From a virus (Duplodnaviria > Heunggongvirae > Uroviricota > Caudoviricetes), in the IMG/VR virus record IMGVR_UViG_2740892232_000003: a stretch of 11,223 nucleotides of DNA. One strand, 5' to 3'. The notes under the pieces are model-generated. The model did not search any database. It was given only the letters and a program-made list of their open reading frames with translations, and was not told the origin of the DNA. Below, piece after piece: positions 1,794 to 8,064 of this stretch (positions are counted from its first letter, which is position 1; each line of letters begins with the position of its first letter). Position numbers and translations under genes: made by a program.

Positions 1794-2537
1794 ATGACAC
1801 AGACAGAATCAGCGATTCTGGCGCATGCCCGGCGGTGTGTGCCTGCGGAGTCGTGCGGCTTAGTGGTGAGAACGCCGGAGGGGGAGCGGTATATCCCTTG
1901 TGTGAATATCTCTGCAGAGCCGGAGGCGTATTTTCGTATTGCACCGGAAGACTGGCTGCGGGCAGAGATGCAGGGGGAGATTGTGGCACTGGTCCACAGT
2001 CATCCCGGTGGGCTGCCCTGGCTGAGCGAGGCTGACCGGCGGCTGCAGATAAAAAGCGCACTGCCCTGGTGGCTGGTCTGCCGGGGTGACATTCACAAAT
2101 TCCGCTGTGTGCCACATCTGACGGGACGGCGCTTTGAGCACGGGGTGACGGACTGTTACACGCTGTTCCGGGATGCTTATCATCTGGCGGGGACTGAAAT
2201 GCCGGATTTTCATCGCGAGGATGACTGGTGGCGCAACGGCCAGAACCTGTACCTGGACAACCTGGCGGAAAACGGCTTTTGCCGGGTGTCTCCGTCCTCT
2301 GCACAGGCAGGCGATGTGCTGCTGTGCTGCTTTGGTGCTTCGGTGCCGAATCATGCCGCCGTTTACTGTGGTGACGGCGAGCTGCTGCACCATATTCCTG
2401 AACAACTGAGTAAACGGGAGAGGTATTCCGAAAAATGGCAACGACGAACGCATTCAGTCTGGCGTCACCGCCACTGGCACGCATCCGCCTTTACGGGGAT
2501 TTACAACGATTTGGCCGCCGCCTCAGCCTGTATGTGA
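1794..2537 (+). CDS. K: Tail tip assembly protein K (MPN/JAMM domain plus NlpC/P60 domain)
   Basis: A 247 aa ORF starting 5 nt after L. It has a JAMM-type metal-binding motif (HSHPGGLPWLSEAD, i.e. HxH-x7-S-x2-D) and, further on, an NlpC/P60-like Cys...His arrangement (DCYTLFRDAYH ... NHAAVYCGDGELLHHIP). Its 3' end overlaps I by about 103 nt in a different frame, as in the lambda K/I arrangement. Confidence 0.9.
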   Translation: MTQTESAILAHARRCVPAESCGLVVRTPEGERYIPCVNISAEPEAYFRIAPEDWLRAEMQGEIVALVHSHPGGLPWLSEADRRLQIKSALPWWLVCRGDIHKFRCVPHLTGRRFEHGVTDCYTLFRDAYHLAGTEMPDFHREDDWWRNGQNLYLDNLAENGFCRVSPSSAQAGDVLLCCFGASVPNHAAVYCGDGELLHHIPEQLSKRERYSEKWQRRTHSVWRHRHWHASAFTGIYNDLAAASACM

Positions 2538-3115
2538 ACACGGCAGCGGAAGCCATTCGCGCCCTGTCGATGCAGATGCCGGGCTTTCGCCGTCAGATGA
2601 ACGAAGGCTGGTACCAGATACGTATTGCCGGTGATGACACGGCACCGGAGGCGGTGTACGCCCGTCTTCACGAACAGCTGGGTGAGGGAACGGTCATCCA
2701 CATTGTGCCGCGACTGGCCGGGGCCGGAAAGGGTGGACTGCAGATTGTGCTGGGGGCGGCAGCCATCGTGGGCTCTTTCTTCACGGCCGGTGCCTCGATG
2801 GCGTTATGGGGTACAGCCCTGAGTGCCGGCGGTTTTTCTGCCACCACGATGCTGTTTTCACTGGGGGCCAGCATGATACTGGGCGGTGTGGCCCAGATGC
2901 TGGCCCCGAAGGCAAAAACACCGGATTACCGCGCAACGGATAACGGCAGACAGAACACGTACTTTTCCTCACTGGATAACATGATTGCCCAGGGGAACCC
3001 GATGCCGGTGCCTTACGGGGAAATGCTGGTTGGCTCCCGCCGTATATCCCAGGACATCAGCACCCGTGATGAAGGCGGGGGCGGAAAGGTCGTGGTTATC
3101 GGGCGGCAGGGGTAA
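2435..3115 (+). CDS. I: Tail assembly protein I
   Basis: A 226 aa ORF whose translation (MATTNAFSLASPPLARIRLYGDLQRFGRR...IHIVPR.AGA..GG.QIVLGAAAI.GSFFTAG...FSLGASM.LGGVAQMLAPKA.TP...TDNG.QNTYFSSLDNM.AQGN) matches lambda gpI from memory. The C-terminal half is Gly/Ala-rich and hydrophobic. Confidence 0.9.
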   Translation: MATTNAFSLASPPLARIRLYGDLQRFGRRLSLYVNTAAEAIRALSMQMPGFRRQMNEGWYQIRIAGDDTAPEAVYARLHEQLGEGTVIHIVPRLAGAGKGGLQIVLGAAAIVGSFFTAGASMALWGTALSAGGFSATTMLFSLGASMILGGVAQMLAPKAKTPDYRATDNGRQNTYFSSLDNMIAQGNPMPVPYGEMLVGSRRISQDISTRDEGGGGKVVVIGRQG

Positions 3116-3121
3116 AAAGAA

Positions 3122-3220
3122 TAAAAAAATCCCGCAGTGATCGCGGACAGGAACTGCGGGAGAGTTACGAAGATTAAGTGTAAGGAATTATTCTTATATC
3201 ACGACAAAAAAATTAACGCA
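3122..3220 (-). ncRNA. Candidate small non-coding RNA of about 95 nt, bounded by the promoter and terminator above (hypothetical)
   Basis: The interval between the predicted start (about 3218) and the terminator U-tract (about 3122) has no ATG-initiated ORF on the minus strand. This is an inference from promoter and terminator geometry only; there is no homology or expression evidence. Confidence 0.3.
3130..3161 (-). terminator. Intrinsic terminator hairpin oriented for the minus strand
   Basis: Arms at 3130-3138 (tcccgcagt) and 3153-3161 (aactgcggga) form a 9 bp stem around a 14 nt loop. On the + strand an A-run (aaaaaaa at 3123-3129, with more A upstream) precedes it, so the minus-strand RNA ends stem + AUUUUUUUAUUCUUUUU. 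There is no T-run after the stem on the + strand. Confidence 0.55.
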
Positions 3221-3225
3221 GAGAA

Positions 3226-3253
3226 ATTATACGCGCCACAGTCAGTTTGTGAA
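3226..3253 (-). promoter_or_regulatory. Candidate sigma70 promoter on the minus strand (-35 TTCACA, 16 bp spacer, -10 TATAAT)
   Basis: On the minus strand, TTCACA (complement of 3248-3253) is followed by a 16 nt spacer and a perfect TATAAT (complement of 3226-3231). It sits in a roughly 38% GC island between the GC-rich I and J genes. Its predicted start near 3218 points leftward toward the terminator at 3130-3161. Confidence 0.45.
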
Positions 3254-3325
3254 AATGTGAAGATATTCAGAATTTTTATGCCATTACCGGTTTTAACCAA
3301 CAGGATTATCGGTGGGCATGAAAGA

Positions 3326-3364
3326 AAACCCCGGTATCTGCTGATACCGGGGTTTCTCTTTAGC
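3326..3364. terminator. Strong GC-rich hairpin with U-rich flanks on both strands (bidirectional terminator-like)
   Basis: A perfect 13 bp stem (3326-3338 aaaccccggtatc paired with 3343-3355 gataccggggttt) encloses a 4 nt loop (tgct). The + strand continues CTCTTT and the minus strand continues UCUUUCAU. Confidence 0.6.
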
Positions 3365-3458
3365 ATGGCAGAAATGTGTTTCATGCTTTTCGGGCGAAGG
3401 ATATCCGACTTCTGTACGGAATGGCAAGTGGCGGTTAATTTATTCAGGGGAAGGCTGT

Positions 3459-6400
3459 ATGGGAAAAGGTGGCGGTAAGGCACACACGCCTCGTGAGGCG
3501 AAGGATAATCTCAAATCCACGCAGATGATGAGTGTGATTGATGCGATTGGTGAGGGACCGATAGAAGGTCCGGTGAAGGGACTGCAGAGTATTCTGGTGA
3601 ACAAAACCCCGCTGACGGACACGGACGGTAATCCCGTGATACACGGTGTGACTGCGGTCTGGCGTGCCGGGGAGCAGGAGCAGACACCACCGGAAGGCTT
3701 TGAGTCCTCCGGAGCTGAAACCGGACTGGGCGTGGAAGTGACGAAGGCAAAACCGGTGACGCGCACCATTACGTCCGCGAACATTGACCGCCTGCGGGTT
3801 ACCTTCGGGGTGCAGTCACTGGTGCAGACCACGTCAAAGGGCGACCGTAATCCTTCCTCTGTCCGGATTCTGATTCAGTTACAGCGTAATGGCCGCTGGG
3901 TGACGGAAAAGGATGTCACCATTAACGGCAAGACCACCTCGCAGTTCCTGGCCTCGGTGATTCTGGATAATCTGCCTCCCCGGCCCTTTAACATCCGGAT
4001 GGTCAGGGAGACGGCGGACAGCACCACGGACCAGCTGCAGAATAAGACGCTGTGGTCGTCATACACCGAAATCATCGATGTGAAACAGTGCTACCCGAAC
4101 ACGGCCATTGTGGGGCTGCAGGTGGATGCGGAGCAGTTCGGCGGCCAGCAGATGACGGTGAACTACCATATCCGCGGTCGCATCATCCAGGTGCCGTCAA
4201 ACTATGACCCGGAAAAACGCACGTACAGTGGTATCTGGGACGGCAGCCTGAAACCGGCATACAGCAACAACCCGGCCTGGTGTCTGTGGGACATGCTGAC
4301 TCACCCGCGCTACGGCATGGGAAAACGTCTGGGGGCGGCGGATGTGGACAAGTGGGCGCTGTATGCCATCGGGCAGTACTGCGACCAGACGGTCCCGGAT
4401 GGTTTCGGGGGGACCGAGCCGCGGATGACCTTTAATGCGTACCTGGCACAACAGCGTAAGGCGTGGGACGTTCTCAGTGATTTCTGCTCTGCGATGCGCT
4501 GTATGCCGGTATGGAACGGCCAGACGCTGACGTTCGTTCAGGACCGTCCGTCGGATGTGGTGTGGCCGTACACCAACAGCGATGTGGTGGTGGATGATAA
4601 CGGCGTGGGTTTCCGCTACAGCTTCAGTGCCCTGAAGGACCGGCACACGGCAGTGGAGGTGAATTACACCGACCCGCAGAACGGCTGGCAGACCTCCACG
4701 GAACTGGTGGAAGACCCGGAAGCCATACTGCGCTACGGACGCAACCTGCTGAAGATGGACGCGTTCGGCTGTACCAGCCGCGGTCAGGCCCACCGTGCCG
4801 GGCTGTGGGTGATAAAGACCGAACTGCTGGAAACGCAGACGGTGGATTTCACGCTCGGGTCACAGGGGCTGCGTCACACACCCGGTGACATCATTGAAAT
4901 CTGTGATAACGACTATGCCGGGACCATGACCGGCGGACGTGTCCTGTCCATCGATGCCGCCAGCCGTACCCTGACGCTGGACCGGGAGGTGACACTGCCG
5001 GAGACCGGCACGGCCACTGTTAATCTGATTAACGGCAGCGGTAAGCCGGCGAGCGTGGCCATCACCGCACACCCCGCGCCTGACCGGATACAGGTCAGCA
5101 CCCTGCCGGATGGTGTGGAGACATACGGTGTGTGGGGACTCTCCCTGCCGTCACTGCGTCGTCGCCTGTTCTGCTGTGTCTCCATCCGGGAAAACACGGA
5201 CGGCACGTTCGCCATCACGGCGGTGCAGCACGTACCGGAAAAAGAAGCCATTGTGGATAACGGGGCCAGCTTTGAGCCGCAGTCAGGCAGCCTGAACAGC
5301 GTTATCCCACCGGCAGTGCAGCACCTGACGGTGGAGGTGAGTGCAGCTGACGGTCAGTATCTGGCACAGGCGAAATGGGACACGCCGCGGGTGGTGAAGG
5401 GTGTGCGCTTCAGTCTGCGTCTGACCAGCGGAAGCGGAGAAGACAGCCGTCTGGTGAGCACCGCCATCACCGCAGACACGGAGCACCGTTTCAGCGGCCT
5501 GCCACTGGGGGAATACACCCTGACGGTCAGGGCGATTAACAGTTATGGTCAGCAGGGCGAACCGGCCACCACCACGTTCAGGATTAACGCGCCTGCAAAA
5601 CCCGCCACCATTGAGCTGACGCCGGGGTATTTTCAGATAACGGCGGTACCGGTGCTGGCGGTGTATGACCCGACGGTGCAGTTTGAGTTCTGGTTTTCGG
5701 AAAAACGCATCACGAACACGGCACAGGTGGAAAAATCTGCCCGTTATCTGGGGACCGGCAGTCAGTGGACTGTCCAGGGCGATCGGATTAAGCCGGGGAT
5801 GGATTTCTGGTTTTATGTGCGCAGTGTCAACCTGGTGGGCAAGTCTGCATTTGTGGAAGCCAGCGGGCAGGCCAGCAATGATGCAAAAGGGTATCTGGAA
5901 TTTTTCCGTGGTCTGATAGATGAGACGCTGCTGGGGCAGGCACTGAAAAAGCGCATTGATGCGTCAGCCCTGCGATCGGATGTCACTCAACTGGAAGAGA
6001 ATATCGGACAACTGGAAGAAGACATCCGTCAGCGGATGGACACGGATATTGCGGAAGTGACCCGGAAAATCGGGGAGGCGGAAAACAGCCTCACGCAGCT
6101 GGTTGCGAAAAAGAATGAGGATCAGACGCTGGCCATCGCGCAGGTGAGTCAGAAAGTGGACCGTGTCAGCAGTGAAATCTCACAGACGGTCAGTCAGAGC
6201 AGTGAGGAAAATACCCGACAGATAGCACAGGTCCGCCAGTACGTGGACAAAAAGCAAAGTGAAATCAAGCAGACAGTCAGCCAGGGCCAGTCAGAAAACG
6301 CCCGGCAGATAGCACAGGTCCGTCAGTACGTGGATGAAAAAGGGAGTGAAATTGCCTCGACCACGGATAAAAAACTGGGTGACCAGGCCGTGACCATACA

Positions 6401-7259
6401 GCAAATCCAGCGGGTTCAGTCAGACACGCGCGATAATCTGAATGCCATGTATATGCTGAAGGTGCAGAAAACGAAGAAGGGTATTCCGTATGTGGCCGGG
6501 ATTGGCGCGGGGATCGAGGATGTCGATGGTCAGACGCTGAGTAACATTCTGCTGCAGGCCGATCGCATTGCGATGATTACTCCGGAGAACGGTAACACCA
6601 CGCCGTTATTTGTGGCGCAGGGGAATCAGCTGTTCATGAACGACGTGTTCCTGAAGCGACTGTTTGCGGTGAGCATCACGTCATCCGGCAATCCTCCGAC
6701 GTTTTCCCTGACGCCGGATGGCAGGCTGACAGCCCGCAATGCGGATATCAGTGGAGCCATCACGGCGAATACCGGCACGCTCAATAATGTCACCATTAAC
6801 GAGAACTGTGTCATCAGAGGGAAACTGTCTGCAAACCAGATTGAAGGCGATCTCGTTAAAACAGTGGGTAAGGCTTTCCCCCGTGACTCCCGTGCACCGG
6901 AGCGTTGGCCATCAGGAACCATTACCGTCAGGGTTTATGACGATCAGCCGTTTAACCGGCAGATTGTTATTCCGGCGGTGGCTTTCAGCGGTGCCAGACA
7001 TGAGCGGGAGAACAGCGATACTTATTCGTCATGCCGCCTGATAGTGAAGAAAAACGGTGCTGAAATTTATAACCGTACCGCGATGGATAATACGCTGGTT
7101 TACAGTGGTGTTATTGATATGCCTGCTGGTCGCGGCCACATGACGCTGGAGTTTTCTGTATCAGCATGGTGGGTAAATGGCTGGTATCCCACAGCAAGTA
7201 TCAGCGATTTGCTGGTTGTTGTGATGAAGAAAGCCACTGCAGGCATCACGATTAGCTGA
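3459..7259 (+). CDS. J: Tail tip host-specificity protein J (central tail fibre), expanded variant of 1266 aa
   Basis: The N-terminus ([39 protein letters not shown]...) and long internal stretches ([22 protein letters not shown]; [30 protein letters not shown]; [24 protein letters not shown]; LETQTVDF; [31 protein letters not shown]; [11 protein letters not shown]...[16 protein letters not shown]; [17 protein letters not shown]) match lambda gpJ from memory. A GGGGAAGG Shine-Dalgarno sequence precedes the ATG. Confidence 0.95.
6183..6356 (+). repeat. In-frame tandem repeat inside J: two 87 bp (29 codon) units within a coiled-coil-like insertion
   Basis: Unit A (6183-6269) and unit B (6270-6356) align at about 75% identity and share the core cagatagcacaggtccg.cagtacgtgga. 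They encode [30 protein letters not shown] and [29 protein letters not shown]. Confidence 0.85.
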
Positions 7260-7326: not shown

Positions 7327-7926
7327 ATGCGTAAATTATGTGCTGTTATTCTGTCCGCAGTAGTCTGGCTGGTTGCCGCTGGTACGCCAGCGAGCGCAGC
7401 AGAGCATCAGTCCACACTAAGCGCCGGGTATCTTCAGACCCACACTGATATGCCAGGAAGCGATAATCTGAACGGGATTAACGTGAAATACCGTTATGAA
7501 TTTACGGACACGCTGGGGCTGATTACGTCTTTCAGTTATGCCGACGCAGAAGATGAACAAAAAACGCATTACAGCGATACCCGCTGGCATGAAGATTCCG
7601 TGCGTAACTGCTGGTTCAGCGTAATGGCGGGGCCGTCTGTGCGCGTGAATGAATGGTTCAGCGCGTATGCGATGGCGGGTGTGGCTTACAGCCGTGTGTC
7701 GACTTTCTCCGGGGATTATCTCCGCGTAACTGACAACAAGGGGAAAACGCACGACGTGCTGACCGGAAGTGATGACGGTCGCCACAGCAATACCTCTCTG
7801 GCGTGGGGGGCTGGCGTGCAGTTTAACCCGACCGAATCCGTGACCATTGACCTTGCTTATGAAGGTTCCGGTAGTGGCGACTGGCGAACGGATGCATTTA
7901 TTGTTGGTATCGGATACCGTTTCTGA
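7327..7926 (+). CDS. lom: Lom outer-membrane protein (Ail/Lom/OmpX/PagC family beta-barrel), complete
   Basis: A 199 aa ORF with a signal peptide (MRKLCAVILSAVVWLVAAGTPASA|AE) and the family C-terminus (INVKYRYEFTD...SAYAMAGVA.SR...AWGAGVQFNP...IDLAYEGSGSGDWRTD.FIVG.GYRF), which is nearly identical to the lambda Lom C-terminus from memory. It has its own Shine-Dalgarno sequence (GAGAGG) and is flanked by terminators on both sides. Confidence 0.93.
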   Translation: MRKLCAVILSAVVWLVAAGTPASAAEHQSTLSAGYLQTHTDMPGSDNLNGINVKYRYEFTDTLGLITSFSYADAEDEQKTHYSDTRWHEDSVRNCWFSVMAGPSVRVNEWFSAYAMAGVAYSRVSTFSGDYLRVTDNKGKTHDVLTGSDDGRHSNTSLAWGAGVQFNPTESVTIDLAYEGSGSGDWRTDAFIVGIGYRF

Positions 7927-8029: not shown

Positions 8030-8064
8030 GAAGCCCGTGGCGTCACTGCTGCGGGCTTTTTTTA
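8030..8064 (+). terminator. Rho-independent terminator after lom
   Basis: A stem (agcccg at 8032-8037 paired with cgggct at 8052-8057) with a 14 nt loop is followed by a T7 run (8057-8063). Confidence 0.6.

Follow-up and report, generated by a model that had tools for sequence, protein, structure and literature searches.

Lambdoid prophages are already known to carry an sRNA gene between their tail genes I and J, from EHEC in 2014 and from EPEC in 2021. The EPEC RNA, PasB (E2348CN_0006), belongs to prophage PP6 of the O127:H6 strain E2348/69 and was mapped as an 83 nt RNA to the minus strand of NC_011601.1 (1466343-1466261; Table S6 of Pearl Mizrahi et al., 2021, PMC8550237). The same study verified PasB by Northern blotting, found its stability to be Hfq-dependent (log2 fold change of -6.8 and -2.4 in an hfq deletion) and recorded 37 RIL-seq interactions, with PasB as the second RNA (RNA2) in 99-100% of its chimeric fragments. 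PasB has a U-tract of 7 (PMC8550237, Table S5), and its abundance was higher under the non-activating condition (PMC8550237). More recently, the PasB seed was placed directly upstream of the terminator (Zhu, Shabalina and Storz, 2026 preprint, doi 10.64898/2026.05.13.724894). The EHEC RNAs, EcOnc22, EcOnc23 and EcOnc24, come from the O157:H7 Sakai prophages Sp15 (Stx1), Sp14 and Sp11 (Tree et al., 2014, PMC4104026, Table S2). They measured ~85 nt on Northern blots and were scored as ‘Destabilised’ in an hfq deletion (PMC4104026, Tables S2 and S3), and Hfq binding of EcOnc22 was seen by CRAC (PMC4104026). In a 2021 review, EcOnc22-24 are entered as RNAs of unknown function. Table S6 of PMC8550237 has an empty note for PasB and gives no link to EcOnc, and the preprint by Zhu et al. 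makes no mention of EcOnc.

Like the PasB family, AgvB, AsxR and HnrS are short, Hfq-associated non-coding ‘morons’ in the late regions of lambdoid prophages of pathogenic E. coli, and they too often occur in several copies, conserved towards the 3' end and variable towards the 5' end. Targets have been validated for these RNAs (GcvB, FnrS, hha), whereas none has been validated for PasB.

We analysed an 11,223 nt stretch of a Caudoviricetes virus (IMG/VR record IMGVR_UViG_2740892232_000003), hereafter the window, which covers the tail-tip end of a lambdoid prophage late operon (Table 1). The CFT073 ORF homologous to its gene I carries the RefSeq label ‘tail assembly protein’. I and J are separated by a gap of 343 bp (3116-3458), and GC content falls to 0.40-0.42 over 3100-3399, compared to 0.55-0.63 in the flanks. 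The initial annotation had described this gap as a low-GC island of that size inserted relative to lambda, and the premise is correct because the phage lambda gap measures 60 bp. Indeed, each sequence feature it named was confirmed at its position. Lambda has the same gene order and, like the window, a sense-strand hairpin with a U-tract just before J, but its short gap holds no sRNA gene. Over the whole gap the window is 100% identical to CFT073 (1364141-1364483), in which the sRNA unit falls at 1364148-1364244, and ~630 further complete E. coli genomes share the identical gap; this allele is thus present in ~630 of 5426 such genomes (~12%), mostly from extraintestinal strains. No RefSeq/PGAP annotation was found in the I-J gap in the more than 1400 genomes looked at.

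Table 1. Features of the I-J region of the window, with identities to EDL933 and E2348/69 for selected segments.
Feature	Position	Strand	Remarks
K-type JAB/NlpC peptidase ORF	1794-2537		Pfam
Tail assembly gene I	2435-3115	+	226 aa; Pfam Lambda_tail_I, E 3e-16
Last 400 nt of I	2716-3115		95-96% identity
Predicted PasB/EcOnc22-family sRNA gene	3123-3219	-	Covariance model match; predicted primary transcript of 97 nt, from the -10 box
Intrinsic terminator	3123-3161	-	Stem CCCGCAG(U)/(A)CUGCGGG, 14-nt loop, then U7 at 3129-3123
Mechanical ORF across gap	3137-3478	+	113 aa
RNA body	3162-3206		60-63% identity
Conserved single-stranded core	3169-3192	-	AAUAAUUCCUUACACUUAAUCUUC; 56-allele conservation profile and 12-locus BLAST-derived alignment
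Putative seed	3177-3169	-	UUAAUCUUC; best-conserved stretch of the core
Mechanical ORF across gap	3483-3199	-	94 aa
Promoter segment	3220-3262		93% identity
Sigma-70 promoter	3226-3253	-	-35 TTCACA 3253-3248, 16-nt spacer, -10 TATAAT 3231-3226
A/T-rich block	3254-3281	-	AUAAAAAUUCUGAAUAUC...; upstream of -35, nearly invariant
Module B	3282-3458		J-proximal 177 bp; absent from 235-254 bp gaps (E2348/69, Sakai Sp11/14/15, others)
Long hairpin	3316-3368	both	Perfect 13-bp core 3326-3338/3343-3355, 4-nt loop UGCU
Weak promoter-like site	3398-3427	-	TTGCCA-18-TATCCT, 9/12 consensus positions
J Shine-Dalgarno	3447-3454	+	GGGGAAGG; direct sequence reading; with start codon 3447-3461
Tail tip/host-specificity gene J	3459-7259	+	1266 aa; full set of Pfam GpJ domains
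First 400 nt of J	3459-3858		96.5-97.5% identity
Lom ORF	7327-7926		Pfam

The I-proximal half of the gap contains a compact transcription unit directed against the late operon. A near-consensus minus-strand promoter had been proposed here, and a consensus scan recovered it with 11 of 12 positions matching; between 2800 and 3800 the scan found three promoter-like sites, compared to 0.7 +/- 0.9 in shuffled sequences. Both hexamers, TTCACA and xATAAT, are kept in all promoter-bearing alleles, and the window thus has the sigma-70 promoter of its own that is typical of the family (TTCACA, a spacer of 16-17 nt, xATAAT). The A/T-rich block upstream of the -35 hexamer is 100% identical to that of EDL933, even though the RNA body is only ~60% identical, and is a possible UP element or regulator site. 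Downstream, the hairpin with U-tract that had been read as the end of the unit was recovered as a 9 nt inverted repeat (3130-3138/3153-3161, 100% complementary). Its stem and U-run are those of the family terminator, CCCGCAG/CUGCGGG followed by 6-8 U in the copies seen, and the terminator with its U7 is likely the Hfq-binding 3' module. The I stop codon is 8 nt away from the predicted 3' end at 3123.

The seven terminator stem pairs are invariant in 11 homologues, with variation confined to the loop; covariation among these homologues gives no support because the stem never varies, and the structure of the sRNA rests on thermodynamics and on published RNA sizes. Folded over its full length, the RNA has a modest z-score (-2.1). 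RNAalifold, run on the 11-member alignment, pairs only the 7-bp terminator stem and leaves the remainder, including the conserved core, unpaired. Directly 5' of UUAAUCUUC, the segment AAGAAUAAU reads as three A-R-N triplets (AAG-AAU-AAU). The conserved unpaired stretch directly 5' of the window terminator corresponds to the seed position given by Zhu et al. for PasB.

Judged by its sequence, this minus-strand unit is a divergent copy of the Hfq-dependent prophage sRNA family PasB/EcOnc22-24. In PP6, PasB occupies the gap between I and J, is read against the late operon and has its 3' end beside the I stop codon, as in the window. When the two were aligned, 65 of the 83 PasB positions were identical: promoter, start surroundings and terminator are nearly identical (promoter 93%; terminator stem and U7 tail identical) and the core elements AUCUUC and UCCUU are common to both, but the RNA body has diverged (~63% identity) and the terminator loop of the window is 5 nt longer. 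The E2348/69 gap also differs in size (240 bp), as it lacks module B. Of the 23 nt in the PasB Northern probe, moreover, the first 20 match the plus strand of the window, beginning at 3128.

The same arrangement is found in EHEC, where each of the three Sakai loci has a 240-bp I-J gap with a homologous unit of promoter, body and terminator that runs against the late operon. In reverse complement, the published EcOnc22/23/24 probe matches an unbroken run of 23 nt in the homologous RNA body. The listed EcOnc22/23/24 peak coordinates are offset from the unit by 138-140 nt, constant at all three loci, which could reflect a coordinate shift between genome versions; because of this offset the identification of EcOnc22-24 rests on the probe match. 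The Sakai RNAs agree with the window in family, locus and orientation, but they represent a different allele, with AATAAT as the -10 hexamer and GAUGCCUGAAAAAUAACUCCAUAACG in the body. EcOnc22-24 and PasB are accordingly one family under two names, a link that is drawn here. The reading of the gap as a candidate small RNA therefore holds, since the unit is homologous to experimentally detected sRNAs. The initial annotation had also rated the unit the least explained structure of the window and had held its correspondence to a known regulatory RNA to be undecidable from sequence; as a copy of a published family it does not deserve the first description, and homology to the published sRNAs decides the second point.

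A covariance model (CM) was built from an alignment of 11 E. coli family members, including EcOnc22-24 and excluding the window and CFT073. It matched the minus strand of the window over its full length (3123-3219) with 87.4 bits (E 6.9e-15), while 80 unrelated genome loci with the CCCGCAG...CTGCGGGAUUUUUU motif, taken from a genome scan with the terminator motif alone that matched unrelated terminators of many phyla, scored at most 33.3 bits, and phage lambda gave no CM match. This match, together with the PasB alignment, establishes sequence homology to experimentally defined members of PasB/EcOnc22-24. The Rfam search of the gap that had been proposed returned nothing relevant at gathering or permissive thresholds: cmscan of the whole window against Rfam 15 at gathering thresholds gave no match, AgvB (RF02702), AsxR (RF02703), STnc100, Esr41 and IsrG included, and a search of 3000-3600 with E up to 10 gave only sub-threshold matches of at most 19.6 bits (cut-offs of at least 39 bits), driven by terminators. 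Rfam holds no model for the PasB/EcOnc22-24 family.

An AgvB/AsxR-type anti-sRNA was rejected on location, size and lack of an Rfam match, as AgvB and AsxR lie downstream of PR' and measure 51-60 nt; the multicopy prophage sRNA HnrS (EcOnc10-12) was rejected because it is 66 nt long and resides at other sites, in Sp9, Sp10 and Sp12. EcOnc54 (Sakai Sp6), considered as a further copy or as evidence on module B, was also rejected, since it belongs to a different moron region and not to the I-J gap.

A minus-strand sRNA of about 95 nt had been predicted; homologous sRNAs from the same locus and orientation bear out the prediction, but its size does not agree with theirs. Placing the start 7 nt after the -10 box yields 97 nt in the window, 98 nt in E2348/69 and 91 nt in Sakai, and the measured homologues, at 83-85 nt, fall 6-15 nt below these 91-98 nt predictions. 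Processing of the 5' end could account for this, as could a start site further downstream. As the reported 5' end of PasB in E2348/69 directly follows the U-run, processing is suggested, and by analogy the mature form of the window RNA may be ~84 nt, starting near 3206.

A search at blastn sensitivity located the family in 1847 of 5426 complete E. coli genomes, with as many as 9 places in a single genome. A pattern scan of IMG/VR returned at least 122 copies with at least 57 distinct 150-nt alleles, and the window allele is the commonest among the matches listed. In 97 of the 122 copies listed, the opposite strand encodes both the C-terminus of I, no more than 40 nt from the RNA 3' end, and the N-terminus of J, no more than 700 nt away. 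The window therefore shows the family's characteristic position between I and J, antisense to the late operon and with the 3' end at the I stop, an arrangement common to E2348/69, Sakai Sp11/14/15 and ten other E. coli loci. Promoterless copies survive outside the I-J context as the 3' end of a sodC transcript, a co-option as a sodC 3'UTR, and the I-J sRNA locus also shows tandem duplication.

The initial annotation had counted homologous I-J spacers without its elements as evidence against it; promoter and terminator are kept across the 56 alleles listed. Conserved among these alleles are the A/T-rich block, TTCACA, xATAAT, CUGCGUUA at the predicted start, the U-run, the core (...UCCUUA...UUAAUCUUC) and the terminator stem, a conservation that is in part forced by the scan pattern (ATCUU, CCCGCA, CUGCGGGAUUUU), although the forced positions are also invariant in the 12-locus BLAST-derived alignment. 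The 5' body and the terminator loop are variable. Between alleles, the body is ~60% identical, and promoter, flanking genes and terminator stem are 93-100% identical. As the body of the window RNA shares 60-63% identity with EDL933 and E2348/69, compared to 93-97.5% for flanks and promoter, divergence is concentrated in the part expected to recognise targets.

This divergence bears on how widely the family has been recognised. A published survey of PasB used blastn with word size 28 and >75% query coverage (Zhu et al. preprint, doi 10.64898/2026.05.13.724894) and reported variants that differ by ‘a few nucleotides’ (doi 10.64898/2026.05.13.724894). As the longest exact word shared by the window and the 83-nt PasB query is 25 nt, below that word size, the CFT073-type allele was probably missed by the survey. 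A literature search for UPEC interactome data on the I-J sRNA locus found none.

We consider it very probable that the half of the gap from ~3116 to 3281 is a self-contained sRNA gene of the PasB/EcOnc22-24 family that yields a stable, Hfq-dependent, trans-acting RNA. What was observed here comprises sequence features, homology, synteny and conservation of promoter and terminator; expression (on Northern blots and by RNA-seq coverage), size, Hfq dependence and the many RNA partners were established by others for the homologues, and would carry over to the window by analogy. In the proposed mechanism, an sRNA gene inserted between I and J would be transcribed against the late operon, from a strong sigma-70 promoter that would start the RNA near 3219 to a terminator with U7 that would stop it at 3123. 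The product, by homology, would be a stable base-pairing sRNA of ~85-97 nt that acts in trans with Hfq. Lysogens, in which the late operon is silent, would produce it, and it would bind Hfq via the terminator and U7 tail, possibly also via the AAG-AAU-AAU A-R-N triplets. Pairing with host and horizontally acquired mRNAs would probably involve the unpaired UUAAUCUUC and the UCCUU-containing region. For the window allele we infer expression, seed identity, trans-regulation and lysogen-specific timing, and its targets and Hfq dependence are extrapolated from PasB, whose body is only about 60-63% identical to its own, and, for Hfq dependence, also from EcOnc22. The window allele belongs to the CFT073 type that is widespread among extraintestinal E. 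coli, and it may act on other targets than EPEC PasB does.

An alternative is that the RNA acts mainly in cis, forming a duplex during lytic growth with the I-J spacer of the late mRNA that leads to RNase III/RNase E processing, or interfering with late transcription through its convergent promoter, and thereby tunes the J:I ratio or delays tail-tip synthesis. In sequence the sRNA is a perfect complement of the I-J spacer in the polycistronic late transcript, the gene lies on the opposite strand inside the late operon in 97 of the 122 copies listed, its linkage to the I stop codon (8 nt) is strict across alleles, and its position is better conserved than its body sequence, as a purely cis-antisense role would allow. 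Yet the RNA does not reach into the I coding sequence, and the J ribosome-binding site, likewise outside it, is >225 nt away; with the 3123-3219 unit clear of the I CDS and of the J SD and start codon, the overlap that defines the classical cis-antisense type (lambda OOP, anti-Q) is absent. PasB, moreover, has 37 trans partners in RIL-seq and occupies the second position in chimeras like canonical trans sRNAs (PMC8550237), promoterless sodC-3' copies persist outside I-J, and a conserved single-stranded core would be superfluous for a cis-antisense role. A mainly cis-acting RNA is therefore unlikely in our judgement, but cis and trans roles are compatible, and a cis role is possible without being required by the trans-acting sRNA that we favour.

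The J-proximal part of the gap, module B, raises a separate question. The second hairpin that the initial annotation had reported and left unexplained, perfect over 13 bp with U-rich flanks on both strands, was recovered with arms that are 100% complementary. Its U-rich tails, UUUCUCUUU on the plus and UUUUCUUUC on the minus strand, make it terminator-like both ways, and it is far more stable than shuffled sequences (z -4.0 on the plus strand, -4.8 on the minus strand). Module B could in principle hold a second sRNA ending at this hairpin, either a ~73-nt minus-strand RNA from the weak promoter-like site (3427-3398) or a plus-strand fragment at the 3' end of the I transcript, ending near 3364, which would contain the PasB complement and could sponge PasB. 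The stability of the hairpin and its terminator-like tails on both strands agree with such an RNA, as does the placement of the minus-strand promoter-like site, and the minus-strand fold of 3400-3300 consists of a 5' hairpin and the terminator. The module is also at least 99% identical in 1442 of the 1451 E. coli records that have it. This near-invariance leaves no comparative signal across the 1451 records and is uninformative, however, as the first 400 nt of J are 97-99% identical too, so that module B is perhaps just young or J-linked. Against a second sRNA, the -10 hexamer TATCCT is poor (9/12 overall), no promoter on the plus strand passed the threshold, and Rfam gave no match. We regard such an RNA as improbable.

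Module B is not alignable to E2348/69 (29.8%), and all short-type gaps have instead a non-homologous hairpin at the equal relative position, between the PasB promoter and J. That hairpin, CAGGCAyCC-loop-GGrUGCCUG followed by UUGUUUUU on the sense strand, shows one compensatory C:G to U:A change between alleles; its terminator tail is on the sense strand only, which argues against a minus-strand RNA from this region as a family feature. The lambda gap also has a sense-strand hairpin (ACCGCC-UGCG-GGCGGU, then UUUG). Given hairpins at a like position in the short gaps and in lambda, we read the 13-bp hairpin as a local pre-J terminator-like element. It is most likely a separate element outside the sRNA gene, a general pre-J feature that is here bidirectional, and it could terminate transcripts that are not antiterminated, shield the 3' end of an mRNA or act as an insulator for the sRNA promoter.

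It is very hard to maintain that the promoter and hairpins arose by chance or have a purely structural role in an AT-rich recombination scar, as an insulator or terminator between the tail genes, and that no functional RNA is made. AT-rich DNA easily gives -10-like hexamers, and the whole-RNA fold z of only -2.1 would suit a scar, but promoter, start region, core and terminator are kept in the 56 alleles listed while bodies diverge to ~60%, and the homologues are discrete Hfq-dependent RNAs found in two pathotypes by two laboratories, so that the scar is contradicted by published Northern blots. Least probable, to the point of being negligible, is a small protein: two unusually long open frames span the window gap, but the initial annotation had seen no credible ORF there and neither frame has a Pfam match, the longest plus-strand stop-free run of 117 codons compares with 24-85 in other gaps, the minus-strand run drops to 36-40 codons at two loci (L005 and L010), inter-allele indels have lengths that are not divisible by three, more than 1400 genomes lack any PGAP annotation there, and a conserved small ORF was rejected as the frames are not kept open among homologous loci.

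The sRNA gene of the PasB/EcOnc22-24 family thus remains the preferred reading, and sequence evidence newly joins EcOnc22-24 and PasB, two names in the literature, as one family. It is also much broader than the word-28 survey suggests (1847 of 5426 genomes and at least 57 IMG/VR alleles), and the window allele, common in ExPEC lineages, is divergent, widespread and unannotated. Tentatively, and as a possibility we would not yet favour, the I-J gap may be a second non-coding ‘moron’ hot spot that carries a swappable, fast-diverging target-recognition cassette, with CFT073-type targets distinct from those of PasB; such an sRNA could additionally act in cis on the late mRNA. The concentration of divergence in the body makes allele-specific target sets testable. 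As neither Rfam nor RefSeq annotation includes the family, a covariance model would close a gap that recurs in annotation.

In some prophages, two PasB-family genes lie in tandem within an I-J gap enlarged to 471 bp: L011 (501-971 in NZ_AP027217.1) and the IMG/VR copies L177 and L187. Each gene of these pairs has a separate promoter and terminator, and the two RNA bodies are unlike each other. The single sRNA gene in the window contains a direct repeat (14/18 nt identical, with a spacing of 84 nt), such that CUGCGUUAAUUUUUU, the start region as read in the RNA, is similar to the terminator 3' arm and tail CUGCGGGAUUUUUUU; this repeat is kept in all PasB-family alleles. It may represent a half-terminator relic from an ancestral tandem array or, alternatively, a second U-rich Hfq site.

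The window also carries a terminator-like 13-bp hairpin upstream of J, at which GCAUGAAA has two possible pairing partners, giving two mutually exclusive structures. A sense-strand hairpin followed by a U-tract was also observed immediately 5' of J in lambda (967-986 of locus L016) and 5' of J in every I-J gap of the short type, which lacks the J-proximal 177 bp present in the window (Sakai, E2348/69, L005, L006, L008, L010, and L011). These pre-J hairpins are not homologous in sequence to the window hairpin. They display one compensatory change (CACCC/GGGUG versus CAUCC/GGAUG). No terminator is known to have been described at this position in lambda.

Two long stop-free frames cross the AT-rich I-J gap on opposite strands, overlapping each other over non-coding sequence, an occurrence that would be unusual by chance; in homologous I-J gaps these frames are not conserved. 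Elsewhere in the window, a terminator-like hairpin downstream of lom was recovered as a weak partial match in a search with a covariance model built from 11 PasB-family homologues, the window left out. The J product of the window is 1266 aa, whereas the J gene is 3693 nt in CFT073 and 3399 nt in lambda. Ahead of its C-terminal receptor-binding domain, the window J has a Gln/Ser-rich segment with internal repeats. No complete E. coli genome was found to match the whole window beyond ~98% over 80% of its length.

Positions of features in the window
Feature	Position	Strand	Remarks
Direct repeat in sRNA gene	3123-3140 / 3207-3224		
Stop-free frame	3137-3478	+	113 codons
Stop-free frame	3199-3483	-	94 codons
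GCAUGAAA	3316-3323		can pair with extension of the 13-bp hairpin (~3356-3368) or with UUUCAUGC (3379-3386)
J	3459-7259		
Hairpin with U7 tail, CCCGUGGCGUCACUGCUGCGGGCUUUUUUU	8034-8063	+	terminator-like; ~110 nt 3' of lom

Members of the PasB family were also found behind a prophage sodC gene. At L012 (501-596 in NZ_CP024155.1), the sRNA body and terminator are present without a promoter (78.8 bits with the covariance model), 88 nt 3' of the sodC stop codon and in the same orientation as sodC, while gene I flanks the copy on its other side; the same arrangement is seen at L137, L189, L192, and L213. In this position, a PasB-family member would not be a gene of its own but would form the sodC 3'UTR and terminator.
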